Source: Pseudomonadota bacterium
GTDB lineage: Bacteria > Myxococcota > JACRCW01 > JAFGSX01
Length of the DNA: 64,000 nt
Direction of reading: 5' to 3'
Assembly (NCBI GenBank): GCA_043821645.1
Contig: JBDRCO010000037.1
Span: 128,001 to 192,000, forward strand
Below the pieces are notes generated by a model. It did no database searches and was not told where the DNA came from. It saw only the letters and a program-made list of their open reading frames with translations. The position numbers and the translations under genes are program-made. Numbering within the stretch: position 1 is the first letter of the stretch; the number at the start of each line of letters is the position of its first letter. Below, in pieces: positions 20,870 to 62,274 of the stretch.

Positions 20870-20949
20870 GGTGCCGGAGTGTACGCCGCGGTACATAACG
20901 AACCACAGCGGCGCTCGACATGCCAGCCACGCCGCACCGGGAGACCATC

Positions 20950-46500: not shown

Positions 46501-47161
46501 TCTGCGAGGTGCCGCGCAGCACGGGGTGGTCCGGCGACATGGCGCGGGCGCGGTGGGCCCGCACCAGCTCGTCGTCGATCATCTGGCGCAGATCATCGTC
46601 GCTGAGCTCCTCGATCTTGGCCACCTCGTGGGAGGTGCGGAAGCCATCGAAGAAGTGCACGAAGGGCACCCGCGCTTCCAGTGACGCGGCCTGGGCGATG
46701 GCGACCGTGTCTCCGACTTCCTGCACCGAGCCCGAAGCGAGCAGGCCCCAGCCCGTGGCGCGCACGGCCATGATGTCCGAGTGATCGCCGAAGATGGACA
46801 GGGCGTGGGTGGCCAGGGTGCGGGCCGAGACGTGAAACACCGTCGAGGTCAGCTCGCCCGCCACCTTGAACATGGTCGGGATCATCAGCAGCAGGCCTTG
46901 GGAGGCGGTGAAGGTCGTGGTCAGGGCTCCCGTCTGCAGGGCGCCGTGCACCGCGGCCGCGGCTCCACCCTCGCTCTGCATCTCGACCACGTCGGGGACC
47001 GTGCCCCAGATGTTGGTCTTGCCCTGGGCGGACCACTCATCCGCCCATTCACCCATGTTCGAAGAGGGGGTGATCGGATAGATGGCGCAGATCTCGTTGA
47101 TGCGGTGGGCAACGTTGGCAGCGGCTTCATTGCCATCGATGGTGAGGATATTGCGGCTCAT
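43565..47161 (-). CDS. nifJ: Pyruvate:ferredoxin (flavodoxin) oxidoreductase, single chain
   Basis: DGNEAAA, YPITPSS, EMQSEGGA, two 4Fe-4S motifs, GACSGCGE, GGDGWAYDIG; AAGGAG RBS. Confidence 0.97.
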   Translation of the reverse strand: MSRNILTIDGNEAAANVAHRINEICAIYPITPSSNMGEWADEWSAQGKTNIWGTVPDVVEMQSEGGAAAAVHGALQTGALTTTFTASQGLLLMIPTMFKVAGELTSTVFHVSARTLATHALSIFGDHSDIMAVRATGWGLLASGSVQEVGDTVAIAQAASLEARVPFVHFFDGFRTSHEVAKIEELSDDDLRQMIDDELVRAHRARAMSPDHPVLRGTSQNPDVFFQARETVNPYYDACPAIVQKAMDRFAKVVGRSYHLFDYEGAPDAERVIVLMGSGTEAAHETVEYLQAKGEKIGLVKVRLFRPFSREHLARALPASVKKIAVLDRTKEPGAGGEPLYKDVVTALAEMQAEGTLPTKTFPVVVGGRYGLSSKEFNAAMIKGVFDELKKDKPKQGFTVGIHDDVTHTNLAWDPTFSTEDNSVFRALFFGLGSDGTVGANKNTIKIIGTETENYAQGYFVYDSKKAGAVTVSHVRFGKKPVRSTYLIDQAHFIGCHQTVFLEKFDMLDKALPGATFLLNTQAPADKVWDTLPIEVQQSLIAKKCKFYVIDGYQVAQDANMGNRVNTIMQTCFFAISGVLPKDDAIAAIKGAIKKTYGGKGDRIVQLNYDAVDKTLENLHEVKVPAKVSSSFKRPPAVPEGAPEYVDQVVRQIILGKGDDIPVSAFPKDGSFPTGTTQYEKRNIALEIPVWDEKICIECGKCAMVCPHAAIRTKVYDKKFTQDAPPTFKWRETKDKQFPANSVYSVQVAPEDCTGCQLCVEVCPAKDKSNVSHKSLEMAAQPPLRAPERDNYNFLLKLPEIDRTLPKIHTVKGSQVLQPLFEYSGACSGCGETPYIKLMTQLFGDRAIIANATGCSSIYGGNLPTTPYTTRSDGRGPTWNNSLFEDCAEFGLGFRLTQDKHGQFARELLGKMGGALGANLVQGLLEADQTTEKGIAEQRARVAELKTKLDKDSSNDAKNLISVADALVRKSVWMFGGDGWAYDIGYGGLDHVLANNRDVNALVLDTEVYSNTGGQASKATPVGAVAKFAASGKPINKKDLGLIAMTYGHIYVAQVAMGANDAQCVKAFLEAEAYPGPSLIIAYSHCIAHGIPMEKGLEHQKAAVDSGHIVLYRYNPLLAREGKNPLKLDSKAPKISMKEYTYSETRYKMLTKSKPELAAKFLDMAQTAAQARWRFYSQLAEMRYSDEAVAGDKAGAAD

Positions 47162-47306
47162 CGGTATCTCCTTAGCGTGGCACCAGAGGGGCGGACCTCG
47201 AGGTCCGTGGGCCCGTCTCATACGTGCCGCCTGCACGAAGGGCAACGGTTATTTCCGACGCCGGGAGGCTGTGCGGACCCTTGTTTTTTTGTCTCGACCC
47301 ATCGCA

Positions 47307-47336
47307 TTGACATCGCGGCCGGTTCTGATAGGTAAT
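47307..47336 (+). promoter_or_regulatory. Candidate sigma70 promoter for the mglBA cluster
   Basis: Perfect TTGACA at 47307 with TAGGTA/GGTAAT 16-18 nt downstream. Confidence 0.45.
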
Positions 47337-47466
47337 GGGCCGCTCCCGAGGAGGAGGCCTCGGCTGCCATCGCTGTGATGGCGCCGGCGGTGCAACGACT
47401 CGACGGGAACCGATAACTTTCGCGCTTTGCAGCTGCCGGGGCGAGCGCGCCGGACATGAGGGCGGC

Positions 47467-47943
47467 ATGAACTCCCAGTTTGTGATGTACGAGGAGGAGT
47501 TCAAGCATATCCATGCGGTCTGCACCCGTTTGACCCGCGATGCGAATGCCAAGGTGGTCTTCCTCGTGGACAAGAATGGCCAGCTCATCGCGGCCACGGG
47601 CGAGGTCGCCAACCTGGACACCACGAGCCTGGCCTCGCTGACTGCGGGTAACATCGCCGCCACCGGCGGCATTGCCAAGCTGATCAACGAGAAGGAGTTC
47701 TCGCAGATCTTCCACGAGGGGGAGCGCGACAACCTTCACATCAGCATCGTGGGTCAGCGCGTGATCCTCGTCGTCATCTTTGATCACCGGTCGTCACTGG
47801 GACTGGTCCGGCTGCGGGTCAAGCGCGCCAGCGAGGAACTCAATGCGGTGTTCCTGCAGCTGGCCCAGAAGAGCGGGCAACCGAGTGCGATGTCGCCGTT
47901 CGCCGAGATCACCGACGACGACATCGACTCGCTTTTCAGCTAG
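47467..47943 (+). CDS. mglB: Roadblock/LC7 GTPase-activating protein MglB
   Basis: VMYEEEF, DANAKVVFLVDKNGQLI, DTTSLASLTAGN, SLGLVRLR, SPFAEITDDDIDSLF. Confidence 0.96.
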   Translation: MNSQFVMYEEEFKHIHAVCTRLTRDANAKVVFLVDKNGQLIAATGEVANLDTTSLASLTAGNIAATGGIAKLINEKEFSQIFHEGERDNLHISIVGQRVILVVIFDHRSSLGLVRLRVKRASEELNAVFLQLAQKSGQPSAMSPFAEITDDDIDSLFS

Positions 47944-48025
47944 GGGGCGTGCCGGGCACCCGTGAGGGACGCGGCCGGTACACTGAACGTGAGGCGGTCA
48001 GGGGCTCTGAAAGAGGACGCAGTCG

Positions 48026-48616
48026 ATGTCGTTCATCAACTATTCATCGCGCGAGATCAACTGCAAGATCGTGTACTACGGTCCCGGCCTGTGCGGGAAG
48101 ACGACCAACCTGCAGTACGTCTACAACAAGACCAGTCCCGACGCGAAGGGCAAGATGATCTCCCTCGCGACCGAGACCGAACGCACCCTGTTCTTTGACT
48201 TTCTGCCCTTGTCCCTCGGCGAGATCCGTGGCTTCAAGACGCGCTTCCACCTGTACACCGTTCCCGGTCAGGTGTTCTACGACGCCAGCCGCAAGCTGAT
48301 CCTCAAGGGCGTCGACGGCGTCGTGTTCGTGGCGGACTCGCAGATGGAGCGCATGGAGGCCAACCTCGAGTCCATCGAGAACCTCAAGATCAACCTCGCC
48401 GAGCAGGGCTACGACCTCAACAAGGTTCCGTACGTCATCCAGTACAACAAGCGAGATCTCCCGAGTGCCGCCACCGTCGAGGAGCTGCGACGCTTGCTCA
48501 ACGTCAATGGGGTTCCTGAGTTCCAGGCCACCGCCACCACCGGGGTGGGGGTGTTCGACACTCTCAAGGCCATCGCGAAGCTCGTGCTCCAGGAGCTCAA
48601 GAAGGGCGCGCCCTAG
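48026..48616 (+). CDS. mglA: Ras-like polarity GTPase MglA
   Basis: [49 protein letters not shown]. Confidence 0.98.
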
Positions 48617-48682
48617 GTCCGGACTGCAGCCAGAAGGGGAGGCCTCGCCGTCGTCCGTCGACGGACAGCAGGGGAAATCATC

Positions 48683-49465
48683 ATGCGACATCTCATGTTT
48701 CGCTTCGCGCTCTTGAGCGCTGCGTTGGTCTGGGGCGGTGTGCTGATGGCACAGGCCGAAGGCGAGACGACGGTCGAGGCCACGCCTCCCGCAGCCGGGG
48801 ACCCGTCGTCACCAGCCGCAGCGGGCACCGAGACAGCCGTGGATCCTGCTCCCGCTCCAGCGCCGGCCGCCGGTGCCTCGGATCTCAAGACCGCCGACGA
48901 GAGCTACGAGGTCAAGATCCGGGACATCGAGGAAAGGGTCAACGAGCTCAAGGAGAAGATCTTCCAGTCCAAGGTGCGCCTGCTGTCCCTGCAGGAGGCC
49001 GTGTTCACCGGCGTGTCGTCCGGTGCTCGCGCCGTGCTCACCCACCGCAACGAGATGGGCTCGACCTTCCGCCTCACCGAGCTGCACTACTTCATCGACG
49101 GGGCGCCACTCCGGCAGGAGGTCGACGCCACTGGCGAGACCCTCTCGGCCAAGGAAGAGATCCAGCTCTTCTCGGGCAACATCGTCCCCGGAAACCACCA
49201 GATCACCGTCAACCTCGTCTACAAGGGCCATGGCTACGGTGTGTTCGCCTACCTCGACGGCTACACCTTCCGCATCAAGTCCAGCTACACGTTCAAGGCG
49301 GAGGAAGGCAAGGAGACCGAGGTCAAGATCGTTGCCTTCGAGAAGGGTGGCTTCACGACCGAACTTAAGGACAGGCCTGCGGTCCGCTATGACATCGAGG
49401 TCAAGAAGCAGCAGCGCAGGAAGCAGAAGGCGGAGGGCGAGCAGGCAGCGCCCTCGGTGCCCTGA
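48683..49465 (+). CDS. Exported coiled-coil + beta-sandwich protein
   Basis: Signal peptide, P/A linker, coiled coil (IRDIEERVNELKEKIFQSK), beta-rich C-terminal domain. Confidence 0.75.
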   Translation: MRHLMFRFALLSAALVWGGVLMAQAEGETTVEATPPAAGDPSSPAAAGTETAVDPAPAPAPAAGASDLKTADESYEVKIRDIEERVNELKEKIFQSKVRLLSLQEAVFTGVSSGARAVLTHRNEMGSTFRLTELHYFIDGAPLRQEVDATGETLSAKEEIQLFSGNIVPGNHQITVNLVYKGHGYGVFAYLDGYTFRIKSSYTFKAEEGKETEVKIVAFEKGGFTTELKDRPAVRYDIEVKKQQRRKQKAEGEQAAPSVP

Positions 49466-49527
49466 CACGTGTCAACCCAGAGCGAGCAGGCGGGATCATG
49501 ACAGGCGGATGTCGAGGCATCGCACGC

Positions 49528-51914
49528 ATGGCAGGAGGCCTCCTCTTGTGTGCGCTGGTCGTGCCCGCCCGCGCCGCCACTCCCACCTCTCTCCGCAGCA
49601 AGTTGCAGAAGCTCGAGGGATCGCTGGTCCAGGCCAAGGCCGAGGTCTCCGCTCTTGAGCGGGAGCTGAGCAGCGTCCTCGAGTCCTCGCGCCTGAAGTG
49701 CATGGAAGCCCGCGCCGAAGGACGCCTGGCCGAGGGCGCGCAATGTGGAGCGGTCGAGGAGAAGGTCAGCGAGGGACAGATCCTGCTTGACCTCGGCGAA
49801 AATGACAGGGCTGCGATCATTCTTTATGACGTCGTCACCGCACCGGGATTCGAGCGCAGCTTCCTTTACGAAGAGGCGGTCTCCACCCTCGCCGAGGCCC
49901 TGTACCGCAGTGGCAACTACATCGTGGCCAGGACCTACTTCCGCAGTCTGGTGCAGCGCGGCGCGCGGCTCTACGCCGAGAACTCGATCCAGCGCTTGAT
50001 CGAGATCAGCGGTCGACTCAATGACTACGGAGATCTCGACAGCTTCTTTGAGGCCTATCGCAAGATGTCCGGCGGCAGCGTTCGCCCCGAGATCGCCTAT
50101 GTGCGCGCCAAGTCCCTGATTCATGCGGGCCGCTCCGGCGAGGCCCTGCCCTTGCTCGAAAAGATCCCGCGCAACCACAACCTGTGGATGCGGGCGCAGT
50201 ACCTCTCCGGTGTGGCCGTGCTGGCGCCGGGCGGCGAGGCCGCCTTGCAGCAGGCGCTGGACTTCTTCAAGCGTGTCGGCGAGCAAGCTCCGCGCGACGC
50301 TGACGAGAAGGAAGTCCGAGAACTCGGCTACCTGGCACAGGGGCGTCTGTATTACGAGCTGGGCGACCTGGTGACCTCCATCGACGCCTACCAGAACATC
50401 CCTCGTGACTCCGAACACTTTCACGACATGCTGTTCGAGGTTGCCTGGGCCTTCATCAAGCGAGGGCAGTTGCTGTACGACCAGCCCGACCTGGCCCGGG
50501 CCGAATTTCGCAAGGCCCTGCAGGCTCTGGATCTCATCGTGGCACCTGGCAGCCGGCTCGAGCCCGAGATCGCGATCCTGCGCGGCAACCTGCTGCTCCG
50601 TCTCAGCGACTACGACGAAGCCACCAGCTCTTTCGCCGAGGTGGTGGGTCGTTACCAGACCACCGTGGACCAGCTCGAGGCCCTGATGGCCGAGCGTGGT
50701 GACGCCAGCCAGTTGCTCGAGGACATCCTGGCCGCCGACGAAAAGTCGCTGACGGTCAACACGCTGCTGCCCCCCCTGGCTGCCCGCTGGGCGCAGGGCC
50801 AGGAGGAGATCGACCAGGCGCTGCGGGTCTACAAGGACCTGCGCTACAGCAAGACCGAGCTGATCGAGACACGCAAGGTCATCGACAAGCTTCGTGCGGC
50901 GCTGGATTCGCCAAACCGCACCGAGCTGCTGCCTGCTTTCGGTGAGATCCACACACGCGGTCTCAATACCTACGACGCCCTGATAGGGTTGCGCAGTGTG
51001 CTGGTGGGCGTGCAGGGTGAGCTCCTCGACGCGACCAGGATTCCCGGCTACGCCGAGGTGGTGGAGCGGCGCAAGGTCCTGGAGAAGAAGTTTGCCTCCA
51101 TCCCCAAGACCCGAGAGGGCCTGACCGATCGCATGAACCGCATCGCCCAGCGCATCGAGGGTCTCGAACGCGACGTGTTCCGCCTCTCCCTGGCGATCGA
51201 CGAGGCCAATGCCCAGATCAAGGCCATGGAAGTGTGGCTGGTCAGTGTCAAGCAGTCCGGCAAGCTCGGCGCCGGCGAGATCGAGTTGATGAACGGTCGC
51301 CTGGCCCAGGCTCGTGCCGAGGTCGAGTACCTGCGCGAGGAACAGCAGGGGCTGGCAGAACTGCTCAAGCGTGAACATGCCCAGCTCACCGTGTCCGGCG
51401 GGCGGGCGCGCAAGAAGCCGAGATCCGCGCCGAGCTGGAGCGCACCCTGGCCGAGGAGGCCGGGCTGCTGAGCGGGGCGCGCAGTGGCGTGGACGCGGAG
51501 ACCCAGCAGATGCTCACCGAGGTCGACACGGTCGCGGTCGAGCTCGAGAACGTCATCGGCCGCCTGGAACGGTTCCGCGGTGCGCTCGATGGTCACGTCG
51601 AGAGCTACGTCACGGAGATGAAGCGCGCGATCTCCCGCGAGGAGCGCCTGCTCGACGAGCACGAGCGCGAGACCCTGCGCTACCAGAACCAGGCCGGAGA
51701 TGTGGCCGCCGGAGCTGCGGTGCAGGCACTGCGCGGTGTGCGGAACGATTTCCACGACTTCGTGCTGCGCGCCGACGTCGGCCTGGTCGACATGTCGTGG
51801 CAGATGAAGAAAGAAAAGTCGGACGAGATCTCGAAGATGGTCAAGCGGCAGCGCGCCGAACTCAAGGCTCTGGATGTGGAGTTCGGCGAGGTGCTGAAGG
51901 ATGACGAGGAGTAG
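49528..51914 (+). pseudogene. GltC-like TPR/coiled-coil exported protein, split by a 1-nt deletion near 51400-51402 (or a sequencing error)
   Basis: ORFs 49498-51471 and 51489-51914 join if one G is added to GGC GGG CG; restored reading VSGGAGAQEAEIRAELERTLAEE. Confidence 0.75.
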
Positions 51915-54900
51915 CCGGGTGCAGCGCTGGTCCATCCTCCTCCTGTGCATGGCCTCCCTGGCCCCGACCAGGCCCGCTGGGGCGCAGGTTGGCTCGGTAG
52001 TGCAGCCCGGTGACGCCCAGCTCCTCGACGAGATCCGCGAGGTGGTCGACGCCTTCGAGAAGCAGACCCGGGCCTACCGGCGGCAGGTGAACGGTCTGGT
52101 CCAGAGGCAGTACGAGGAGCGCCGCGCCCAGCTCTCCGAGACCTACGAGAAGGCGATCCGCGAGCTCGAGGTGGTCGAACGCCAGCGTCGGCTCGAGGCC
52201 ATCGCGCGCTTCGAGGCCTTCCTGCGGCACTACCCCGACAATCCACAGTACACGCCCGATGCCATGTTCAGGCTGGCAGAGCTTTACTACGAGCGATCTT
52301 ACGAGCAGTACCTGCAGGCCATGCGCGAGTTCGATCAGCAGGTCAAAGCCTTCGATCGCGGCGAGACCACCGACGACCCGGTGATGCCGAGCCAGCACTT
52401 CGAGGACTCGATCGCGCTGTACCAGCAGCTCATCAATCGGTTCCCGAGCTACCGGCTGGTGGATGCAGCCTACTACTTGCTGGGCTATTGCCTGGGCGAA
52501 CAGGGGGAGCTGGAGTCCTCGATCCAGACCTTCGTCACCCTCACCGAGAAGTACCCCGATTCTGGTTTTTACGTCGAGGCGTGGATGCGCATCGGCGAGT
52601 TCTACTTTGACGCCGACCGTCTGGACGAGGCTGTTCAGGCCTACACCCAGGTCACGACCAAGGGCGTGGGTACCAAGTTCTACGACAAGGGCCTGTACAA
52701 GCTTGCCTGGACCCACTACAGGCTCGACCTGTTCGACGCAGCCATTCGAGAGTTCCTGACCCTCGTCGACTACGCTGACGCCGAGAAGCTCAAGGGCAAC
52801 AACGAGGCCCAGTCCCTGCGACCGGAGTCCATCCAGTACGTCGCCATCAGCTTCGCTGACGAACGCTGGGACCGTGGCATTGCCTACGACTTCGAGGCGG
52901 ACCAGACCGGCGAGCAGATGGTGGATTTCGCGATCAGCTACTTCGCCTCGGCGGGCCATCGCCCCTACGAGCCCGAGATCATCGAGCGTCTGGGCGGCAT
53001 CCTGTTCGACAGCGCCAAGTACCAGGGCGCGGTCAAGGCCCTCGAGTACGCTCTCGACCAGGCCCCCCTGGCGCCGCAGGCTCCCCGGCTGCAGCAGAAG
53101 ATCGTCGAGGCCTGGGAACGCGCCCGACAGTTCGACAAGGCGACCGCCGCGCGCGACAAGCTGTTCGAGAAGTACGCGGAGAAGACACCCTGGTACGACG
53201 CCAATATCGAGAACGGTGAGGCCATCCGGGCCGCCCAGGAGTTGACCAAGAACTCGGTGTACGTGTCCGCGATCTTCCACCACCAGCAGGCTCAGCAATA
53301 TTTCCAGGAGCAGCGGCTGGATCTGGCCAAGGTCTCGTACGAGCAGGCGGCCAAGGGGTACCAGCGCTACCTCGACCGCTTCCCGCACGACAAACAGGCC
53401 TACGAGCTGCGGTTCTACCTGGCGGACTGCTACTTCTACTCCCTGGACTTCATGAACGCGGCCGACGCGTACCGCTACGTGCGCGACTCGACGGCAGGTG
53501 ACAAGTACCGCAACGATGCGGCCCTGGGCGTCATCTTCGCCTACCAGGAGGAGATCAAGCGGCTGGAGAAGGCAGGCAAGCTCGAGGCACGCAAGGTGCT
53601 GACCGGGGGCCGCGAGGGCGACACCCTTCCGGCTGCCGAGGAGATCCCGACGCTGCGGACGTCCTATATCCAGGCCTGCGACCGCTTCGTCGAGCTGGCC
53701 CCACAGCACGAGCGGGTGCCCGTTTTCTCCTACACCTCGGCCGAGACCTTCTACGTCTACAACCACTTTGACGAGGCCACCAAGCGCTTCGAGCAGATCA
53801 TCGAGAAGTACCCCACCGACGAGGTGGCCAAGTTCGCTGCGAACCTGATCATCGAGCTCCTGCTGGCCAAGAAAGACTGGGTTGCCGTCGAGAAATTCGC
53901 CCAGATGGTGCAGCAGCGACGGGTGGGCGACACCGAGGCCTACAAGAAGTTCGAGGTCGGCGCCCTGTTCAACAAGGCGAGCCAGTACAACGCCGAGGGC
54001 GAGAAGTTGCTTAGCGAGGGCAAGGCCAAGGAAGGCAACGCCAAGCTCGAGGCCGCCGCCGCCGAGTACGTGCGCCTGGTCAGCGAGAACCCCAAGCACG
54101 AGTTCGCGGACAAGGCCCTGTTCAATGCCGCGGTGGCCTACGAGCGCGTGCGCCGCTTCGAGTCGGCCGCGCGTCTGTACGAGCGGGTGTTCGATGAGTA
54201 CCCGCAGAGCGATCTCGCCGACAAGTCGCTGTTCCTGGTGGCACTCAAGAGCGAGCAGGCCTTCGACTTTGACAAGGCCATCGACAAGTACCTGAGGCTG
54301 GTCAAGGACTACCCCAAGAGCACCGACCGCGCCAACGCGCTCTTCAACGCGGCCCTCGCGCTTGAGAACACGCAGCAGTACGAGCGCGCGGCCCGGGAGT
54401 ACGAGCGCTACGCTTCGATGTTCTCCGATCGCGAGGACGCCCCCGAGACCTTCTACCGGGCCGCCATCGTGCATGAGAAGCGCGAGGACAAGGCTGCCAT
54501 GGTCTCGACCCTGTTCAAGTTCATCCAGAAGTACCGCAAGGACGCGCGCCAGGGCGACCGCGTGGTCGAGGCCCTGGGCAAGATCGCGACCTACTACGAC
54601 GAGGCCGGCAAGGACTCGGACGCGACCAAGTATTACGAGTCCGCGGTCAAGGAGTTCGCGGCCCGGGGTCTGGCGCCGGCCACGCGCGCTGGTTACTTCG
54701 CGGCCAAGGCTCGCTTCGCCCTCATCGAGAAGGAACTCAAGCGCTACGAGACCATCAAGATCGAGGGCGACGGCAAGAACCAGCAGAAGCAGCTTGCCCT
54801 CAAGGCCGAGCGCCTGAAGAAGGTCGAGGATCAGTACCGCACAGTGCTCGACTACAAGCAGATCGAGTGGTCCCTGGCCTCTCTGTATCGCATGGGCTTC

Positions 54901-55260
54901 CTGTACGAGAACCTGGCCGAGACCATGGTCGCCGCCGACTGTCCGAAGGACATCAAGCGCCTGGGCCAGGAGTACTGCGACGAGTACAAGGTCCTGCTCG
55001 AGGACAAGGCCGCCGAGCTGGAGCAGAAGATCGTGCCGGCCTATGAGCTGGCGTACAACGAGGCGATCAAGGCCAAGGTCATCAACGAGTGGACCAAGCG
55101 CACCCTCGAAGGCCTCAACAAGTATCGCAAGGCCCAGTACCCCATCGACAAGGAGCCCCTGGGACGGATGGTTCCTCCCTTGTCGACGGGCGCCGGACTG
55201 GTCATCCCCGACGAGGTTGCTGCTCGCATGGGCGCCGGGCGACAGATGGAGGGCAAGTGA
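51901..55260 (+). CDS. Large exported TPR protein, GltD/AgmU-like
   Basis: Signal-like N-terminus; many TPRs (YTPDAMFRLAELYYE, AWMRIGEFYF, YKLAWTHY, ALFNAA); context. Confidence 0.8.
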   Translation: MTRSSRVQRWSILLLCMASLAPTRPAGAQVGSVVQPGDAQLLDEIREVVDAFEKQTRAYRRQVNGLVQRQYEERRAQLSETYEKAIRELEVVERQRRLEAIARFEAFLRHYPDNPQYTPDAMFRLAELYYERSYEQYLQAMREFDQQVKAFDRGETTDDPVMPSQHFEDSIALYQQLINRFPSYRLVDAAYYLLGYCLGEQGELESSIQTFVTLTEKYPDSGFYVEAWMRIGEFYFDADRLDEAVQAYTQVTTKGVGTKFYDKGLYKLAWTHYRLDLFDAAIREFLTLVDYADAEKLKGNNEAQSLRPESIQYVAISFADERWDRGIAYDFEADQTGEQMVDFAISYFASAGHRPYEPEIIERLGGILFDSAKYQGAVKALEYALDQAPLAPQAPRLQQKIVEAWERARQFDKATAARDKLFEKYAEKTPWYDANIENGEAIRAAQELTKNSVYVSAIFHHQQAQQYFQEQRLDLAKVSYEQAAKGYQRYLDRFPHDKQAYELRFYLADCYFYSLDFMNAADAYRYVRDSTAGDKYRNDAALGVIFAYQEEIKRLEKAGKLEARKVLTGGREGDTLPAAEEIPTLRTSYIQACDRFVELAPQHERVPVFSYTSAETFYVYNHFDEATKRFEQIIEKYPTDEVAKFAANLIIELLLAKKDWVAVEKFAQMVQQRRVGDTEAYKKFEVGALFNKASQYNAEGEKLLSEGKAKEGNAKLEAAAAEYVRLVSENPKHEFADKALFNAAVAYERVRRFESAARLYERVFDEYPQSDLADKSLFLVALKSEQAFDFDKAIDKYLRLVKDYPKSTDRANALFNAALALENTQQYERAAREYERYASMFSDREDAPETFYRAAIVHEKREDKAAMVSTLFKFIQKYRKDARQGDRVVEALGKIATYYDEAGKDSDATKYYESAVKEFAARGLAPATRAGYFAAKARFALIEKELKRYETIKIEGDGKNQQKQLALKAERLKKVEDQYRTVLDYKQIEWSLASLYRMGFLYENLAETMVAADCPKDIKRLGQEYCDEYKVLLEDKAAELEQKIVPAYELAYNEAIKAKVINEWTKRTLEGLNKYRKAQYPIDKEPLGRMVPPLSTGAGLVIPDEVAARMGAGRQMEGK

Positions 55261-56903
55261 TGCGCGTGCTGCTCACTGCTCTCACTCTGATGCTGTTGGC
55301 GGGCGCCTGTGCCACGACGGATAGCGCGGCGCGTCCGGACGACACCACCAGCAACAACACGGCGGCATCGACTCCGCCTCCACCTGCTGCTGCTGTCGAC
55401 GAGGCTGCCGCGCCGGAACCCACGCCGCCGCCGGCTCCCGAACCGACCGCGGCTGCGGTCCCACCAAAGCCTGCGCCACAACTCGAGGAACCCGCGCCCG
55501 AGGCGGTGGCAGACCCTGAGCCTCGGCTGTCCCGAGATGCATCTGCCAGCCAGGACTTCACCGACGGCGTCGCCGTGGCCGCAGCGGAGCCGGCTCGGGC
55601 CCTGGGTCTGTTCGAGCGCGCTGCGAAGAGCGACCCCGGCTTCGTGCTGGCCTGGCACAACGCCGGCGCGAGCGCCGAGCGCCAAGGCAAGCTCACGGAT
55701 GCCATCGCGTACTACCAGAAGGCACTCGAGCGTCGTCCGGACTACTTCCCGTCGCTGTACAGCCTGATCCAGATCTACACTCGTCAGGGCAAGGCCGCGG
55801 ATGCGCGCAGTCTTGCCGAACGCGCCGTCACCAAAAAGCGCAGTGCCTCGTCGCTGGCCGCAGCCAGTGCAGCTGCGCTGGCCGCTCGCCAGGTGGGGGA
55901 GGCCGAACGCCAGGCCAAGGCAGCCCTGAAGCTCGACGAGAAGTTCGTGCCGGCGATGTTGCTCCTCGCCGAGGCCTTTCATGCCCAGGGAAAGTTCGAG
56001 CTGGCCAAGTTCGTGCTCAGCAATGCCAAGGAAGTGGACCCGCGCAACGCGCTGGTGCACCAGGCTCTGGGACGAGCGCTGCTCGCGCTCAAGAACCCCC
56101 AGGGAGCCCAGCGCAGCTTCGAGGAGGCGATCGCGATCCGCCAGGACCTCGTCGAGAGCTACAACAACCTTGCGGTGCTGTACTACGAATCGGGCGACTA
56201 TGGCGCGGCTCTGACCTCGTCGAAGAATGCGGTGGACCAGGCTCCACAGCAGGGCGCAGCCTGGCTCAACTACGGCAATGCTCTGCGGGCTGCCAAGCGC
56301 CACGCCGAGGCTATACAAGCCTACGAGAAAACGATCTCGCTGTCCGATGCCGAGGCGGCGACCGCGGCGCAGTTCAACCTGGGCATCCTGTACATTGACA
56401 ATCCCGTCGACAAGCTCGACGACGTGCAGCGCATGGACAAGGCGATGGGCTATCTGAACGCTTACAAGGGGCGCGCCCGGCTCGACGAGGCCATGGCCGA
56501 GAAGCTCGACAAGTACCTCGCCGAGGCCGATCGCGAGAAGCAGCGCGAGCTCAAGCGCCGCGAGCGTGATGCCAAGCGTGCCGCCAAGGACGCCGCCAAG
56601 AAGAAGGCCGAAGAAGAAGCTCGGATCAAGGCCGAAGAGGAAGCCAAGCAGAAGGCTGCGGAAGAGGCAGCGCTGCTCAAGGCCCAGGAAGACGCGCGAA
56701 AGAAGGCCGAACAGGAGGCTCTCAAGAAGGCAGAGGCGGACGCTGCTCGGCAAAAGGCCGAGGCGGAAGCCGCCCGGCTCAAGGCCGAGGAGGAGGCGCG
56801 CAAGAAGGCCGAGGAGGCTGCCCGGCTGCAGGCCGAGGAAGAAGCGCGCAAGAAGGCCGAGGAAGAAGCCAAGCAGCGCAAGCTGGGTGGTGGCGGCAAG
56901 TAG
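55260..56903 (+). CDS. TPR lipoprotein, GltE/AglT-like, with long charged helical tail
   Basis: Lipobox AGAC, Pro-rich linker, TPRs (GKFELAKFVL, YNNLAVLY, LNYGNAL, FNLGILY), E/K/A/R-rich tail. Confidence 0.8.
   Translation: MRVLLTALTLMLLAGACATTDSAARPDDTTSNNTAASTPPPPAAAVDEAAAPEPTPPPAPEPTAAAVPPKPAPQLEEPAPEAVADPEPRLSRDASASQDFTDGVAVAAAEPARALGLFERAAKSDPGFVLAWHNAGASAERQGKLTDAIAYYQKALERRPDYFPSLYSLIQIYTRQGKAADARSLAERAVTKKRSASSLAAASAAALAARQVGEAERQAKAALKLDEKFVPAMLLLAEAFHAQGKFELAKFVLSNAKEVDPRNALVHQALGRALLALKNPQGAQRSFEEAIAIRQDLVESYNNLAVLYYESGDYGAALTSSKNAVDQAPQQGAAWLNYGNALRAAKRHAEAIQAYEKTISLSDAEAATAAQFNLGILYIDNPVDKLDDVQRMDKAMGYLNAYKGRARLDEAMAEKLDKYLAEADREKQRELKRRERDAKRAAKDAAKKKAEEEARIKAEEEAKQKAAEEAALLKAQEDARKKAEQEALKKAEADAARQKAEAEAARLKAEEEARKKAEEAARLQAEEEARKKAEEEAKQRKLGGGGK
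56565..56880 (+). repeat. Low-complexity KKAEEEAR-type coding repeats
   Basis: Repeated AAGAAGGCCGAGGA-like units encoding (K)KAEEEAR/K. Confidence 0.8.
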
Positions 56904-56946
56904 CCGGGGACCCGCGAACGGTCGCATCCTCGTCGACAGAGGTGGT

Positions 56947-57219
56947 ATGAAAATGCAGTTGCGCCGGCAAAGGAGCCGCCAGTATACTCGCTGCCTCGTC
57001 GGGGTCGGAGTCGCACTGACCCTGCTTCTGACGACGACAGCGGCGAGTGCGCAGCGGCGCAAGAAGATCGTGCTCAGCGAATTCGTGATCGAAGGGAGAG
57101 TGCAGAAGCCACAGGCCTTTCTTCTGCTGCAGAGGCAGAACCTGAACTTCGAGGGACTTCAACTCAAGAAGAGCTTCGTACCCAAGATTGTCAAGTCCGC
57201 CGACAGGAAGCCATTTTAA
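56947..57219 (+). CDS. Small exported protein, GltF/CglF-like
   Basis: Signal peptide, then IEGRVQKPQ...R..LNF..L....SF.PKI.KS; position after the GltE-like gene. Confidence 0.7.
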   Translation: MKMQLRRQRSRQYTRCLVGVGVALTLLLTTTAASAQRRKKIVLSEFVIEGRVQKPQAFLLLQRQNLNFEGLQLKKSFVPKIVKSADRKPF

Positions 57220-57373
57220 GGGTACTTGCCCGGGCCTTCGCGGCGACACAGAGGTTGTGCTAGGGTAAGCCCGCCGTGACAGAGAGAGTCCGGCGGTTCG
57301 TTCTGGGAGCAAGAGCCTCGCCCCTGAGGCTTGCATCATCGCGCCGGGAAAAGGCACAAGGAGGACGGTCACC

Positions 57374-58030
57374 ATGTTTGCAGCCATCGCCAAGTTCTTC
57401 GAGGACGGCGGACCGTGGATGTATCCCATCGCCGCGGTCTCAGTCGTCTGCGTCGCCGTCGCTATCGAGCGAATCGTATTCTTGTTCTTCCGCTACGATA
57501 TCAATGGCAACGCCTTCATGGCACAGGTCCAGAAGCTGGTGATGGCCAACAACATCGATCGCGCCATCAAGCTGTGCAACGCCGCCCCCAACGCGGCGCT
57601 GCCAAAGATCATCAAGGCTGGCCTCACCCGCGCCAACAAGGGTGAGATGGAGATCCAGAACGCGGTGGAGGAGAGCACGCTCGAGGTGGTGCCCATGCTG
57701 CAGAAGCGCACCAACTCCTTGGCGGCCCTCGCCAACCTGGCCACTCTGCTCGGTCTGCTCGGAACCGTCATCGGTCTGATCCAGGCCTTCAGCGCGGTTG
57801 CCAACGCGCCGCCGGACCAGAAGTCGGCCCTGCTGGCCTCCGCCATCTCGATCGCCATGAACACCACGGCCTTCGGTCTCATGGTGGCGATCCCGACCCT
57901 GTTTGTGCACCTGATCCTGTCGGGTGTGACCAAGAAGATCATCGACGAGATCGATATGTACTCGGTCAAACTCGAGAATCTGCTGATCGCGCGTGGCAAG
58001 GGCGGCTCGGCGGCCATGGACCGCGGCTAG
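57374..58030 (+). CDS. MotA/TolQ/ExbB proton channel, AglR-like
   Basis: GGPWMYPI, ATLLGLLGTVIGLI.AF, ISIAMNTTAFGL.VAIP. Confidence 0.92.
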   Translation: MFAAIAKFFEDGGPWMYPIAAVSVVCVAVAIERIVFLFFRYDINGNAFMAQVQKLVMANNIDRAIKLCNAAPNAALPKIIKAGLTRANKGEMEIQNAVEESTLEVVPMLQKRTNSLAALANLATLLGLLGTVIGLIQAFSAVANAPPDQKSALLASAISIAMNTTAFGLMVAIPTLFVHLILSGVTKKIIDEIDMYSVKLENLLIARGKGGSAAMDRG

Positions 58031-58137
58031 TCTCTTTCTGCCTTTTTTTGCGCGGACCCGGGCGACTCGCAAGCCCCGGAACTTCTGGCACCCCACGGTG
58101 TCAGATCTGCTGGGATTCGGTCGCGGGAGAGTGAGAG

Positions 58138-58665
58138 ATGGCCAGAAAACCATCCGAGCGGCGCCACGGTGCCGATGAGACGTCAGAGCTGAACCTGGTT
58201 CCGATCATGAACCTGGTGCTGATGCTCATCCCGTCCATCTTGATCACGGCGGCTTTCGTCGAGATCACGGTGATCAACGTTTCGGCGCCGCAGATCGGCG
58301 GTGGCGCTCCCCAGGAGCAGCAGGAAAAGCCTGACAAACCACCGCTCAATTTGACCATCGTATTGACCGACCAGGGGTTCACCATTGCGGGTTCGGGTGG
58401 TGTGCTGGGCCAGGAGCAGGCTGATCCCAATGCCCAGAAGGGGCCCACCATCCCGAAGACCTCGGCGGGTGACTACGACTGGCCAGGTCTGACCAAGAAG
58501 CTGGTCGAGATCAAGGATGCTTTTCCGGAAGAGACCAAGGTCATCGTCAACGCGGAGCCGGACATCAAGTACGAGTTCCTCGTGGGGACCATGGACGCGG
58601 CGCGCGAGACCACTGATCACCGCGAGCTGTTTCCCGACGTGATCCTGAGCGCAGGTATCACCTGA
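58138..58665 (+). CDS. ExbD/TolR family protein 1 (AglQ/S-like), TM Asp replaced by Asn
   Basis: ELNLVPIMNLVLMLIP TM segment; periplasmic AEPDIKYEFLVGTMDAAR. Confidence 0.88.
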   Translation: MARKPSERRHGADETSELNLVPIMNLVLMLIPSILITAAFVEITVINVSAPQIGGGAPQEQQEKPDKPPLNLTIVLTDQGFTIAGSGGVLGQEQADPNAQKGPTIPKTSAGDYDWPGLTKKLVEIKDAFPEETKVIVNAEPDIKYEFLVGTMDAARETTDHRELFPDVILSAGIT

Positions 58666-58718
58666 TAGCAGTGAGGGTGAGGTGCCCGGAGCCGTGAACC
58701 ATCGCTGCGGAGCGTGAG

Positions 58719-59330
58719 ATGAGCGACGCCAGTCAGGAAAAAGATTTCAAGGTCCAGGAGGACGGCATCGGTGACGGTGGCGAGTTCGTCGGCTGGACCG
58801 ATGACCTCAAGGCTGCCCCCACCCAGCGCCGCAAGGGAAAGTCGAAGAGGGTCTCGGAGTACAAGGCCGCCCTCAACATGAACTCCCTCATGGACATCGT
58901 GACCATCATCCTGGTCTACCTGCTCAAGAGCTTTGCAGGCAGCCCGGTGTCGGTGCCCGATCCCAACGTCAAGCTGCCGGCCTCGACCGCCCAGCTGATC
59001 CCGGAAGAGGCGGCGACGATCACCGTGACGACGCAGCGAATCGTCGTCAATGACAAGTCCGTGGCGGAGATCAACGAGGGGCGTATCGACCCCAATGACA
59101 AGCGCGATGGCCCGCAGGGCTTCTTCATCACACCGCTGTACGACGCCCTGGTCGAGGCGGCGGACAACGAGAAGAAGATCGCCCAGTACAACCCGGCGCG
59201 GACCTTCAAGGGGATCAGCATTGTCATCTGCGACAAGAGCATCCCCTTCCGCCTGCTGTCCGAAGTCATGTACACGGCCGGCCAGGCCGAGTTCGGAAAC
59301 TTCAAGTTCGCCGTCATCAAGAAGGAATAG
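58719..59330 (+). CDS. ExbD/TolR family protein 2 (AglS/Q-like)
   Basis: LNMNSLMDIVTIILVYLL; DKSIPFRLLSEVMYTAGQAEF. Confidence 0.9.
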   Translation: MSDASQEKDFKVQEDGIGDGGEFVGWTDDLKAAPTQRRKGKSKRVSEYKAALNMNSLMDIVTIILVYLLKSFAGSPVSVPDPNVKLPASTAQLIPEEAATITVTTQRIVVNDKSVAEINEGRIDPNDKRDGPQGFFITPLYDALVEAADNEKKIAQYNPARTFKGISIVICDKSIPFRLLSEVMYTAGQAEFGNFKFAVIKKE

Positions 59331-59415
59331 GCGGGTCTCGGGGGTCAGGGAGAGGTGTCGGTGCGCGTCGCCTCAGGACAGACGCGTGTATTGAAAGGGT
59401 GAGGAAGCAAAGGTC

Positions 59416-60786
59416 ATGGCCGCGCAAGCCACGGGCAAGATACTCCGCATCGGAGTGATCCAGAGCGGCAAGATCATCGAGGAGCGGCTCCTGCGCAAGC
59501 GGGACGTCGTCACCATCGGTACCGATACCAAGAACACCTTCGTGTTTCCCGCCTCGGAACTGCCCAAGGCCATCCGGCTCTTCGACTTCAAGGGTGGCGC
59601 CTACACACTGTGCTTCGACGACAAGATGGACGGACGTGTGTCCGTCGGTGAGTCTGTCCTCGACTTCACGGGACTCAAGACCCAGGGTGTGGCCAAGAAA
59701 TCTGGCGACCAGTACAGGGTGAGTCTCAATGAAGAGTCCCGCGGCAAGGTGGTCGTGGGCGGGTTCACGCTGCTGTTCCAGTTCGTGGTTCCGCCCCCTG
59801 AGCCTGCCAAGCCGCAGCTCCCGAGCGTGGCCAAGGGCGGCTGGGTCAAGTCCATCGACTGGTTCTTCACGGCGCTGATCGCCTGCTCGTTCGTGGCCCA
59901 CACGGGCTTCCTGGTCTCGTTCAAGTTCACAGATCTGCCTCCCAACCCGACGGTGTTCGAGCTGCCAGATCGCTTCGCCAAGTTCGTGGTGCCGGACAAG
60001 AAGAAGCGCGATCTCGAAGACGCGAAGAAGGCCGGCGAGGGCAAGACTGACGACGAGAAAAAGAAGAAAGCCAAGAAGAAGGCGGACGACGACGAGGGAG
60101 ACAAGAAGGCAGGCAAGAAGAAGGAGATGAGCGAGTCCGAGAAGGCCGCGGCGGCGGCTGCGCGCAAGGCGGCCATTCAGCAAAAGGTCGCAGGCAAGGG
60201 CTTGCTCAAGATCCTTGGCGCGCGGGGACCCGGGGCGGATGGTAGTGGCGCCATCTCCGACGTGTTCAGCGATGGCGGTTTGAGCGGCGATCTCGACGGT
60301 GCTTTTGATGGCACGTCCGGTGTCGGCATCGCCAACAGTGCCGATGAGACCACGCGCCGTGGCAGCGGTAGCGGTGAAGCCACCGGGATCGGCGACCTCG
60401 CCACCGAGGGCGTCGGTACTGCCAACACGGGTTCCAAGGGTGCCGTCAGCGTGCGGGGTAACATCCAGGCGTCCGCGGTCGAGTCCGTGGATGGCAGCCT
60501 GGACCCCAAGAAGATCGCCGCGGCGATTCGCTCACGTCTGTCGGGTATCAAGAATTGTTACGAGCAGCAGCTCAAGCGCAATCCGAAGCTGGCGGGCAAG
60601 ATCGTCGTTGCCTTTGTCATCGACGAAACCGGCAAGGTCAGCGAGGCGAGCGTGGACTCGGACACGCTGGGTGACGGCCAGGTGGCGAAGTGCATCATCG
60701 GGCTCATCCGGCGCGTCAGGTTCCCCAAGCCCGATGAGGGCACGGTCGAGGCCACCTTCCCCTTCGTTTTCACTCCAGCGGGCTGA
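59416..60786 (+). CDS. GltG/PglI/AgmX-like TonB-type energy transducer
   Basis: N-terminal FHA-like beta domain, one TM with His (SFVAHTGF), K/E-rich then Gly-rich linker, TonB-C-like end (IKNCYEQQLKRNPKLAGKIVV.F.I...FPKP..G.V...FPFVF). Confidence 0.88.
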   Translation: MAAQATGKILRIGVIQSGKIIEERLLRKRDVVTIGTDTKNTFVFPASELPKAIRLFDFKGGAYTLCFDDKMDGRVSVGESVLDFTGLKTQGVAKKSGDQYRVSLNEESRGKVVVGGFTLLFQFVVPPPEPAKPQLPSVAKGGWVKSIDWFFTALIACSFVAHTGFLVSFKFTDLPPNPTVFELPDRFAKFVVPDKKKRDLEDAKKAGEGKTDDEKKKKAKKKADDDEGDKKAGKKKEMSESEKAAAAAARKAAIQQKVAGKGLLKILGARGPGADGSGAISDVFSDGGLSGDLDGAFDGTSGVGIANSADETTRRGSGSGEATGIGDLATEGVGTANTGSKGAVSVRGNIQASAVESVDGSLDPKKIAAAIRSRLSGIKNCYEQQLKRNPKLAGKIVVAFVIDETGKVSEASVDSDTLGDGQVAKCIIGLIRRVRFPKPDEGTVEATFPFVFTPAG

Positions 60787-60882
60787 TGACCGTACAATGG
60801 AACGCGCCAGGGCCAGCAGCGCCGGCGCGAGGCGGCGGCGGGCCCCTGCAGGCTCGACAATGGCGAGAGCGGGGAGGCGCAA

Positions 60883-61818
60883 GTGAAGGCCAAGTGGCTA
60901 CACGAGGTTCAGGATCTCCTCAACCAGGAGCAGTTCCGTGCCTGGTTCGATGACCTGGAGCAGGTCCGCATCGAACTCAAGGAGGCCGTGGAGCGCTACG
61001 AGGAGTTGCTGACCCAGGTCAATGTCAGCGAGTTCCGGAGCGAGCTGGCCCAGAAGAACGCCATCGATACCCTCTATCGTGCCAGCGAGTACGAGGACGC
61101 CGCGGCGCAGATGAACGCCGAGGCGACGGACCTCGAAAACAAAGCCATGGAGAACCTGGGCACCTTCGAGGAGCAGCGTGTGCATACCTCGGAGATCTGG
61201 TTCAAGCTGGAAGCTCTGGACCATGACTTGGAGGAGCATCGCAAGGCCAGCAACGCCGCTCGCGTCAAGGAGCTGGAGCGCGGCCGGCGCAAGATATCCG
61301 AGGAGTACGAGCGGGAAGCCGCCAAGAAGCAGCGCTTGTGGGAAGAGGTCGAGGCCATGTGGGGGATCAGCCTCGAGAAGAACCTGCTCACGAACGAGCG
61401 CAGTACCAAGGGCAAAGCCGTGCGGCGGCAAGCGGAGAAGCTTTTTGCCAAGGCCGAGGAGGCCAAGACCCAGGCCGAGGAGCTGCGGGCGGATGCCGAG
61501 GCCATCGCCCGGGAGCGCGAGCGGCTGGAAGAGCGCGAGCGGGAGCTAGTTGAGGACGCCAGGAGCCGGTTTGACGCGGTGCTGCACGAGGACTTCCTGT
61601 ACTGGCAGCAGCGCGAGAACAACAAGCGGGTCTGGGTGTCGCCCCTGATCTCGGACGTCAATAATTACAACATTTCCCTCAGGGCCTGTTCGGTGTATCA
61701 GTGTGAGCGGGGACGCGGCGTCGATTTCCTGGAACCCTTGATCGAGCAGGAAAAATCGTTGCAGGAGGATGGACGTCTCGACGAGTTCTTCAGTGGCGGT
61801 GCGACCAGCGTGCGTTGA
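60883..61818 (+). CDS. Hypothetical cytoplasmic coiled-coil protein
   Basis: Long E/K/R heptad-rich region with small C-terminal domain; GGAGG RBS before GTG. Confidence 0.75.
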   Translation: MKAKWLHEVQDLLNQEQFRAWFDDLEQVRIELKEAVERYEELLTQVNVSEFRSELAQKNAIDTLYRASEYEDAAAQMNAEATDLENKAMENLGTFEEQRVHTSEIWFKLEALDHDLEEHRKASNAARVKELERGRRKISEEYEREAAKKQRLWEEVEAMWGISLEKNLLTNERSTKGKAVRRQAEKLFAKAEEAKTQAEELRADAEAIARERERLEERERELVEDARSRFDAVLHEDFLYWQQRENNKRVWVSPLISDVNNYNISLRACSVYQCERGRGVDFLEPLIEQEKSLQEDGRLDEFFSGGATSVR

Positions 61819-61827
61819 GGCAAGGCC

Positions 61828-62274
61828 ATGGACAAGATCGAGATCCTGCAAAAATCCCCGCTGTTCGAGAAACTCCTGCCTGCCGAGCTGGAGACCCTGG
61901 CAGAATTGACCCAGCCCCGTGAGTACGAGAGCGGCGAGGTCATCATCCGCGAGGGTGATGCAGGTGACGCTCTGTACATCCTGGTTCAGGGCGAGGTCGA
62001 GGTGCTGCGTAGGGATCCCCGTGGCGCCGACCACAGTCTGGCCGTGCTCACGGTTCCTGACTTCTTTGGCGAGATGTCCCTGATCGACAAGGAGCATCGC
62101 TCCGCAACGGTCCGTACCCGCACCCGGGTCACGGCCTTGACCTTGACCGCCGAGAACCTGCACAGCTTTGCCAAGGTCTATCGCGAGGGCTTCACCTGGA
62201 TCGCGGTCAACATCGCCAAGGTGCTCAGTCATCGTCTGCGCGAGACCAACCGTCGCCTCTCCGATCAGGGCTAG
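61828..62274 (+). CDS. Stand-alone cyclic nucleotide-binding domain protein
   Basis: IIREGDAGDALYILVQGEV, FFGEMSLID...RSATV; no HTH. Confidence 0.9.
   Translation: MDKIEILQKSPLFEKLLPAELETLAELTQPREYESGEVIIREGDAGDALYILVQGEVEVLRRDPRGADHSLAVLTVPDFFGEMSLIDKEHRSATVRTRTRVTALTLTAENLHSFAKVYREGFTWIAVNIAKVLSHRLRETNRRLSDQG

Follow-up and report, generated by a model that had tools for sequence, protein, structure and literature searches.

A one-piece G4-type Glt cluster with its own motor genes directly behind mglBA in a Myxococcota genome

The Agl-Glt gliding machinery of Myxococcus xanthus is encoded by the gene groups G1 (gltD-J), G2 (gltK-B-A-C) and M1 (the aglRQS motor), and is regulated by MglA. 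The main text of Luciano 2011 (PMC3169522) also lists M. xanthus paralogues of this machinery, namely the clusters G3 (nfs), G4 (with the gltD homologue MXAN_1922) and G5 (MXAN_1327) and a second motor, M2 (MXAN_3004). In addition, a seven-gene core complex, made up of gltC, gltD, gltE and gltG with aglR, aglQ and aglS, is described for Gammaproteobacteria, Geobacter and Fibrobacter in the main texts of Luciano 2011 (PMC3169522) and Wartel 2013. We analyzed a 64,000-nucleotide stretch from a Myxococcota genome (the window: positions 128001-192000 of contig C37, in an assembly of 7.07 Mb and 140 contigs that is 94.7% complete), in which a gene listing and family scans (Pfam and NCBIfam profiles run on the window proteins) found 13 genes, all on the + strand, that span positions 47467-62274 and encode an MglB/MglA pair, GltC- to GltG-like proteins and a TolQ-ExbD-ExbD motor. 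We consider it likely that this cluster is the undivided form of a Myxococcota-wide G4 paralogue of the Agl-Glt machinery, located directly behind mglBA and separate from the gliding machine. Judged by the relationships of its proteins, it is the widespread G4 paralogue with motor genes of its own, not a new kind of system.

The cluster shares with the gliding machinery homologous GltC, GltD, GltE, GltF and GltG proteins, and a TolQ/TolR-type motor with two TolR-like subunits. It differs in that no GltA/B/H, GltI or GltJ was found in the cluster (GltK and AglZ were not searched for), that its GltD-like protein belongs to a separate orthogroup, and that its GltG-like protein lacks the canonical N-terminal FHA domain, having a single FHA-like domain that resembles the central domain of GltG; moreover, the genome has a gliding-type cluster of its own. 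The component list and the arrangement in a single co-oriented cluster are those of the seven-gene core complex, to which the window adds mglBA upstream as well as GltF-like, beta-sandwich, coiled-coil and cyclic-nucleotide-binding (cNMP-binding) genes. Thus, the original prediction, made from the letters of the window, that the region resembles the proposed Agl-Glt core is consistent with the composition given in Luciano 2011, with GltC, GltD, GltE, GltG and an AglRQS-type motor in one region. There is also a likeness to the Tol-Pal and TonB-ExbBD systems, seen in the TolQ/ExbB and TolR/ExbD families, in the TonB/TolA-like C-terminal fold and S-x3-H helix of the arm, in the YbgF/CpoB-like TPR modules of the GltD-like protein, and in a lipoprotein as the outermost part. 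Unlike those systems, the window cluster has no TolB, Pal or TonB-dependent receptor, and it has two different ExbD proteins, a large TPR scaffold and an FHA-like cytoplasmic domain on the arm.

The closest counterpart is the combination of G4 (MXAN_1922, with mglA MXAN_1925 and mglB MXAN_1926) and M2 (MXAN_3003-3005) in M. xanthus. G4 belongs to the same GltD orthogroup as the window cluster and has the same order from mglB to the gltG-like gene and the cNMP-binding gene, and the window motor appears closest to M2. The arrangements differ in that the motor lies inside the window cluster, whereas in Myxococcaceae-type genomes M2 is located elsewhere, adjoining a topoisomerase-like gene.

We assigned the cluster to the G4 type on the basis of its GltD-like protein and its gene order. 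The GltD-like protein (1119 aa; 51901..55260, +) is a predicted periplasmic TPR protein that matches TPR families and contains six YbgF/CpoB-like stretches (TIGR02795, 156.9 bits). A tree of 17 GltD proteins, built by a quick method with SH-aLRT support and no bootstrap, contained four clades (SH-aLRT 100 for G4, 99 for G1, 100 for Nfs and 100 for G5), each with one protein from the present genome, one from Myxococcus eversor and one from a third genome. The window protein grouped in one clade with those copies from Myxococcus, Corallococcus and Archangium that adjoin mglBA (SH-aLRT 100), and it matched the genome's own paralogues with only 233-253 bits. In M. xanthus, according to the available text of Wuichet and Sogaard-Andersen 2014, mglA is MXAN_1925 and mglB is MXAN_1926, which places MXAN_1922 three genes from mglA. 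Because the window protein belongs to this GltD clade, and because the order mglA, beta-sandwich gene, gltC-like, gltD-like found in Myxococcus loci fits the MXAN numbers, we class the window cluster as G4. Furthermore, matches to the equivalog families fell far under their cut-offs (GltC, NF033756, 61.6 vs 450 bits; GltE, NF033758, 70.9 vs 225; GltG, NF033760, 198.2 vs 650), and the GltD-like protein is in a different orthogroup from the gliding GltD, both of which support the earlier suggestion that this is not the canonical gliding set.

The genome encodes four GltD-like proteins and at least five GltG-like proteins, and contains four Glt-type systems: a gliding-type, an Nfs-type and a G5-type cluster in addition to the window cluster. 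We typed the sister clusters by NCBIfam scans, a barrel-family search and comparison with Myxococcus eversor. The gliding-type cluster is on the same contig (C37:207696-230957), 15.7 kb past the end of the window and about 17 kb beyond the final gene of the window cluster. Its GltC (568.7 bits), CglF/GltF (106.6) and CglE/GltH (114) all score above the cut-offs, its GltE and GltG score 194.2 and 610.7, and it also encodes a GltA/B-type barrel, a GltD-like protein and a GltI-like protein of 4141 aa. The Nfs-type cluster is on C89 in the order A, B, C, D, E, F, G, H; the G5-type cluster, on C70, has two barrels and its own TolQ-ExbD-ExbD; and a GltJ-like gene is on C51. The gliding-, Nfs- and G5-type clusters are thus separate from the window cluster, whose identity, orthology and synteny (below) are directly observed. 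Searching for the GltA/B-type barrel (TIGR04565) yielded five matches genome-wide and none in the window cluster, and the observation that GltA/B is not recognizable in the window was therefore correct. The original prediction also named the discovery of the missing partners elsewhere in the genome as a finding that would argue for canonical gliding; such partners do exist in the genome (GltH, GltF, a GltI-like protein and a barrel), but within other paralogous clusters.

We also noted several features of the sister clusters themselves. In the gliding-type cluster, the barrel and GltC genes come directly before gltD-E-F-G-H-I, such that G1 and part of G2 are joined, unlike in M. xanthus; a gene for an RCC1-repeat protein of 1727 aa follows this cluster. 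The G5-type cluster (C70:85794-99899, minus strand) is in one piece, with the order TolQ, ExbD (Asn), ExbD (Asp), GltF-like, FHA-bearing GltG-like (846 aa), two GltA/B-type barrels, GltC-like, GltD-like, a 255-aa protein and GltE-like. In Myxococcus, G5 lacks an attached motor.

The G4 cluster is linked to mglBA across much of the phylum. In the window, mglB (47467..47943, +), encoding the Roadblock/LC7 GTPase-activating protein of MglA, matches PF03259 Robl_LC7 with 60.5 bits and NF052242 with 81.2 bits (under its cut-off of 200), and is 62-78% identical to the gene at the same position in related loci; it is followed by mglA (48026..48616, +), encoding the Ras-like polarity GTPase, with Arf/Ras-type matches. 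The module thus consists of a Roadblock-type MglB and then a Group 1-type MglA. The window MglA is 82-89% identical to 29 MglA proteins whose genes adjoin this type of cluster in genomes such as those of Myxococcus and Archangium (mean column identity 92%), and only 45-53% identical to the other three MglA paralogues in the genome. A protein search with the GltD-like sequence returned 897 homologues at E<=1e-20, and those listed (>100) showed 41-46% identity over >92% of the length. A scan of species genomes gave 576 GltD-like relatives, and we counted neighboring genes in the best 80 of these 576, among which 56 named loci had at least 5.5 kb of upstream flank and 59 had at least 7 kb of downstream flank. 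We found that 54 of the 56 loci had mglB, mglA and the beta-sandwich gene ahead of the GltD-like gene, and that GltF-like (59/59), GltG-like (59/59) and GltE-like (57/59) genes followed it, as did the cNMP-binding gene in 46 of 59 and the coiled-coil gene behind the gltG-like gene, which is present in the window, in only 22 of 59. The same order of mglB, mglA, beta-sandwich gene, gltC-G-like genes and cNMP-binding gene occurs in Myxococcus, Corallococcus, Archangium, Hyalangium and others.

A survey of the phylum gave a similar picture. In an even sample of 301 genomes from 137 genera (cut-offs E<=1e-150 for GltD, E<=1e-95 for MglA and E<=1e-68 for TolQ), G4-type GltD was present in 212 genomes and 98 genera, and MglA in 249 genomes, a tally that includes one unpublished genome. 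Pairing the two by eye among the matches listed (150 of 213 for GltD; 150 of 249 for MglA), we found that in 75 of 84 paired genomes the two genes share contig and strand, with mglA preceding the GltD-like gene by 3.5-9.1 kb; in the other nine, mglA and the GltD-like gene were split over contig ends. Thus, the physical tie between the cluster and the MglAB switch that was proposed for the window, with mglB and mglA directly upstream and co-oriented, holds there, and the synteny survey across the Myxococcota that was recommended extends it to many other genomes. We also examined six further one-piece loci from genomes of four families, and all six keep the beta-sandwich gene, gltC, gltD, gltE, gltF, tolQ, exbD, exbD and gltG; four of the six have the coiled-coil and cNMP-binding genes as well. 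Upstream of these six loci, we found a clear mglBA in two, a 47-48% identical MglA-like gene in two, a weak MglB-like match in one and neither gene in one. One complete one-piece cluster (G039:C48:30000-49999) has only a 26% identical MglB-like match upstream, and none of the six genomes in the family of G039 has an MglA at E<=1e-95.

The motor genes of the window, which encode a TolQ/ExbB/AglR-type stator channel subunit (57374..58030, +; PF01618, 89 bits, Pfam cut-off 22.9) and the ExbD/TolR-type subunits 1 (58138..58665, +; PF02472, 48.9 bits, cut-off 25.4) and 2 (58719..59330, +; PF02472, 34.1 bits, same cut-off), sit between the gltF-like and gltG-like genes. Such motor genes are present in only 2 of the 59 named Myxococcaceae-type loci with enough flank, and in 4 of 80 overall. 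In the phylum sample, the window-type TolQ was found in 81 of 301 genomes, with a very uneven distribution: 4 of 115 genomes in the Myxococcus-containing family (f11), 17 of 18 in f4 and 10 of 11 in f18. When all TolQ matches were paired by eye with the GltD matches listed (150 of 213), 30 of 43 genomes of other families had TolQ downstream of the GltD-like gene, at 2-8 kb; of the remaining 13, seven were fragmented assemblies and six had an unlinked TolQ copy, 52-59% identical. Based on these counts, the one-piece layout is the usual one outside the Myxococcaceae-like families.

In Myxococcaceae, the candidate counterpart of the window motor is M2. Two Agl-type motors are present in each of Myxococcus eversor and Archangium; one of the two, with genes of 246, 162 and 193 codons, agrees with the AglR, AglQ and AglS entries of Table 1 in Luciano 2011 and is therefore M1, and the other is M2. 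In a TolQ tree, one clade (89/97) united the window protein with both M2 copies and four further G4-linked ones, the G5-linked motors formed a separate clade (99/99), and AglR fell outside both; the motor trees were unrooted or midpoint-rooted. The M2 TolQ and second ExbD had their best matches in the window genes, while the M2 first ExbD matched best an orphan ExbD on C87 (117 bits) and then the window gene (109 bits). These results suggest, without being decisive, that the window motor groups with the orphan M2 motor of Myxococcus, and it appears that in the Myxococcaceae the motor genes moved out of the cluster and persist as M2. The main text of Wartel 2013 reports two-hybrid assays in which neither GltG nor NfsG gave a signal with MXAN_3003, the M2 homologue of AglR, a result that fits a different partner.

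The two ExbD subunits of the window differ at a conserved Asp in the membrane helix, a residue that is functional in ExbD/TolR proteins. Subunit 1 has an Asn at this position (IMNLV, compared to LMDIV or FIDLM in others), and subunit 2 retains the Asp. The Asn is also found in the C70 and C87 ExbD paralogues, whereas both Myxococcus M2 ExbD proteins, as well as AglQ and AglS, have the Asp, so that in this respect window ExbD 1 differs from M2. The orphan C87 gene (C87:73627-74148), 64% identical to window ExbD 1 and likewise with Asn at the membrane position, has no TolQ or Glt neighbors.

The GltG-like TonB-type arm (59416..60786, +) matches, besides NF033760, the AgmX/PglI tail family NF033768 (104.5 bits, cut-off 40). 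We modeled its structure from a 33-sequence alignment and obtained a confident N-terminal beta-sandwich (residues 8-124) and a membrane helix (149-171), which a disordered linker connects to a C-terminal domain (347-455), with the TonB-CTD-like part at 353-456. In this model, the N-terminal domain is FHA-like: nearly all of its top PDB matches are FHA domains (Foldseek E from 1.6e-3), and it aligns with the Ki67 FHA domain (VIA-align Z 9.4, rmsd 2.7, 94 residues). Likewise, the C-terminal domain aligns with the H. pylori TonB-CTD (VIA-align Z 8.5, rmsd 2.6, 98 residues) and with BtuB-bound TonB (Z 7.8), although TIGR01352 reaches only 21.3 against a cut-off of 27.1. The membrane helix contains S158-x3-H162, with the Ser in 26 and the His in 24 of 33 orthologues, a pattern characteristic of the TonB and TolA membrane helices.

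There was no Pfam FHA match in the GltG-like protein, the NF033760 alignment covers model positions 221-649 only, and in BLASTP with the genome's gliding-type GltG only the C-terminal domain aligns. We had considered that the GltG-like protein has no FHA domain at all, a statement we dropped since the structure model contains the FHA-like domain. Similarly, an alignment with the N-terminal FHA domains of the paralogues compares non-equivalent domains, and we did not use it to argue for a loss of phosphothreonine-binding residues. The available text of a 2025 structural model of M. xanthus GltG (PMC11761067) describes an N-terminal FHA domain, an FHA-like domain just ahead of the membrane helix and, at the C-terminus, a TonB-like domain, with the helix and second FHA-like domain docked on AglR5-AglQ-AglS and the first FHA domain binding GltI. 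As modeled, then, the GltG-like protein of the window keeps the membrane-proximal FHA-like domain but not the one that binds GltI, in line with the absence of GltI from the cluster.

The remaining genes of the cluster encode predicted exported and cytoplasmic proteins. Downstream of mglA is a gene for an exported protein (48683..49465, +) with a signal peptide, an Ala/Pro-rich linker, a long helix (71-108) and an eight-strand beta-sandwich, the latter predicted by AlphaFold with pLDDT >90. This protein matched no Pfam or NCBIfam family, and Foldseek against the PDB gave no match at E<=0.001, just weak transthyretin-like and fimbrial sandwiches; in the Atlas, it matched only unnamed or misnamed Myxococcota clusters and a PEGA/OmpA protein (TM 0.48). 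It is followed by the gene for the GltC-like TPR/coiled-coil protein (49498..51914, +), which is read in two frames and discussed below. The GltE-like TPR protein (55260..56903, +) has a Lys/Glu/Ala-rich helical tail and an N-terminus ending in LLAGAC, and is thus a predicted lipoprotein. The small exported GltF-like protein (91 codons; 56947..57219, +) has no family match and is identified by tblastn conservation at each of the 59 related loci whose downstream flank reaches 7 kb; in the same genome, the CglF/GltF-like open reading frame (ORF) from the Nfs-type cluster is a weak match to it (E 0.0017). Because the GltF-like ORF recurs in related loci and has this weak match, the original list of 11 co-oriented genes at 47467-60786 is accurate, with all genes present on the + strand as named.

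Two conserved accessory genes extend the unit beyond that list: one for a cytoplasmic coiled-coil protein (60883..61818, +), for which the scans gave no family and the Atlas no usable match, and one for a stand-alone cNMP-binding protein (61828..62274, +; PF00027, 84.7 bits). Thus, the extent originally given is right as far as 60786, but the conserved unit reaches two genes further, to 62274. We found overlapping genes at only two junctions, 14 nt at gltC/gltD and 1 nt at gltD/gltE, where the gltE ATG lies on the gltD stop, rather than the several overlaps first described; the other intergenic gaps are 9-154 nt. Promoter-like sites (1, compared to 1.3 expected) and terminator-like sites (11, compared to 10.1 expected) in 46500-63000 were both at chance level.

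We propose, as our best guess by analogy, that the cluster encodes a Tol/Ton-like, polarity-coupled envelope machine. A TolQ-like pentamer would hold an ExbD heterodimer, in which one subunit has the Asn and the other the proton-binding Asp, and this stator would use the proton-motive force to move the GltG-like arm. The arm would dock on the stator with its membrane helix, which has the S-x3-H pattern, and with its membrane-proximal FHA-like domain, while the TonB-like C-terminal domain would engage a periplasmic scaffold of GltC-, GltD- and GltF-like proteins and the beta-sandwich protein, tethered beneath the outer membrane by the GltE-like lipoprotein. Since the cluster has no GltA/B-type barrel, the machine probably stops short of the surface, reaching only the inner face of the outer membrane in the manner of Tol-Pal. 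Exposure at the surface is not favored, and pole-targeted transport, adhesion and prey contact, the functions put forward in the original prediction, are at most candidate roles. MglA-GTP and MglB, perhaps with the coiled-coil and cNMP-binding proteins, may set the place or time of action. With respect to function, the main text of Luciano 2011 (PMC3169522) reports no motility defect in either a polar MXAN_1922 mutant or an MXAN_3004 deletion, and thus gliding is not likely to be the task of the G4 machine.

A number of observations weigh against our reading of the locus as an undivided, MglA-coupled G4 machine with a motor of M2 type. First, we infer control of the cluster by MglA/MglB from gene linkage alone, and among the six further one-piece loci, one has neither mglA nor mglB upstream and one has only the weak MglB-like match. 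Second, in a tree of all three motor proteins, the split of M1 and G5-linked motors from G4-linked and M2 motors had support of only 71/66, and AU tests did not reject a clade of M1 and M2, either for TolQ (p 0.28) or for the three proteins together (p 0.133, 585 columns). Third, the genome has two Agl-type motors for four Glt-type clusters, and no third was found in the assembled 94.7% of the genome with Myxococcus AglR, AglQ and AglS as queries, such that the gliding-type and Nfs-type clusters must borrow a motor, possibly that of the window. Fourth, the stoichiometry and docking outlined above are taken from the published AglRQS-GltG prediction. Finally, the GltC-like gene is out of frame in the present assembly.

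We considered that the mglBA link might be an inherited gene order without functional coupling, with G4 being an MglA-independent, Tol-Pal-like system that happens to lie beside a polarity operon. Such an arrangement would fit the statement, in the available text of Wuichet and Sogaard-Andersen 2014, that Group 1 MglA genes have no conserved neighborhood, as well as the 66-nt gap without overlap between mglA and the next gene, the lack of a clear mglA upstream of two of the six divergent one-piece loci, and an insert of about 5 kb between mglA and the following cluster gene in loci L051 and L065. Moreover, the M. xanthus G4 and M2 mutants described above, in contrast to mglA mutants, have no motility phenotype. 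Nevertheless, the linkage holds over many families, in the paired genomes and in the named loci alike, and it is also kept in loci from which the motor genes have gone; gene order conserved this deeply would usually reflect co-regulation or shared function. Thus, we regard uncoupled neighbors as an unlikely explanation, though one that deserves to be taken seriously.

With regard to the motors, the one in the window might instead do the work of AglRQS for the gliding-type cluster located 17 kb downstream, which would make the locus part of canonical gliding. The genome has only two Agl-type motors for its four GltD-type and five GltG-type genes, and its gliding-type and Nfs-type clusters carry no motor genes; in M. 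xanthus, according to the main text of Wartel 2013, a single motor serves two Glt-type complexes. However, the best matches point to the C70 motor, not the window motor, as the shared one: AglR matches it with 142 bits compared to 129 bits for the window protein, and AglS matches only the C70 motor. In addition, the window motor clusters with M2 in the TolQ tree, the M2 TolQ gave no two-hybrid signal to GltG or NfsG in the experiments cited above, and in every one-piece locus observed the motor lies between the G4-type gltF-like and gltG-like genes. We therefore consider it improbable that the window motor drives gliding, and retain the reading of a G4 machine with its own motor.

The frame change in the GltC-like gene bears on whether the cluster is intact. 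The gene is read as 49498-51471 and 51489-51914, with the frame shifting in a G/C run near 51397-51410, and 68 of 69 related loci have the two parts joined in a single frame, open over about 790-840 codons. We aligned public contigs to window positions 50400-52400, an interval with no RNA run among those listed. One contig of 248 letters from another study, otherwise identical, has an extra letter behind 51403 that restores a single frame, but its depth is only 3.9, which makes it weak evidence, and the best-covering public run has no contig over 50874-51409. We attribute the frame break to a mistake in the assembly or to strain variation rather than to decay. In the same alignment, position 51845, in the tail of the gltC-like gene, is A in contigs of three public runs from different studies and G in the window, a strain difference. 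Although the break interrupts a frame that is single in nearly all relatives, decay of the cluster to a pseudogenized system, marked by the frameshifted gltC-like gene, is very unlikely, because every other cluster gene is open with a high third-position G+C (0.76-0.90), the break falls in a G/C run, the best-covering public run leaves 50874-51409 without a contig, and one additional letter in the near-identical contig restores the frame.

The window has a G+C content of about 66%, and its first 43 kb hold metabolic and housekeeping genes only. The cluster is bordered on the 5' side by a divergent pyruvate:ferredoxin oxidoreductase gene (43565-47245, -) and on the 3' side by the gene for an FG-GAP repeat protein (1598 aa; 62394-64000, +) that continues past the end of the window. 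The window encodes a second cyclic-nucleotide-binding protein, a Crp-type regulator with a cNMP-binding domain and HTH (20141-20896, -), located 27 kb upstream of the cluster.

Viewed simply as sequence, the cluster is nothing unusual in its phylum, and much of its background is already in print: Agl-Glt-like core machines, the G4 paralogue and single-cluster core genes have all been described. The possibility raised in the original prediction, that the same gene order is already widespread and characterized, proved half right, in that the order is widespread and catalogued as G4, but it is not characterized. In the literature we found no later study of G4 or M2, and MXAN_1919-1924 appeared only in Luciano 2011. 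In the main texts searched, we found neither the mglBA-G4 linkage nor M2 as the motor of G4 raised; the supplementary figures of Luciano 2011 and Wartel 2013, which this statement does not cover, may show one-piece clusters.

Taking these results together, we offer a broader and more tentative proposal, which we regard as possible but doubtful: G4 with an M2-type motor would be the ancestral, phylum-wide output of MglA/MglB and would predate gliding, the 13-gene locus would be near the original operon, and M. xanthus would carry the same machine in two pieces, the MXAN_1919-1924 region and MXAN_3003-3005, for a polarity-dependent envelope task that may be modulated by cyclic nucleotides. In the best-studied gliding bacterium, G4 and M2 have been without an assigned function or partner since 2011. 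The undivided locus leads to a concrete hypothesis for both, that M2 is the motor of G4 and that the pair is under MglA/MglB, and the phylum-wide linkage of mglBA to G4 bears on what the polarity switch may have targeted before gliding arose.

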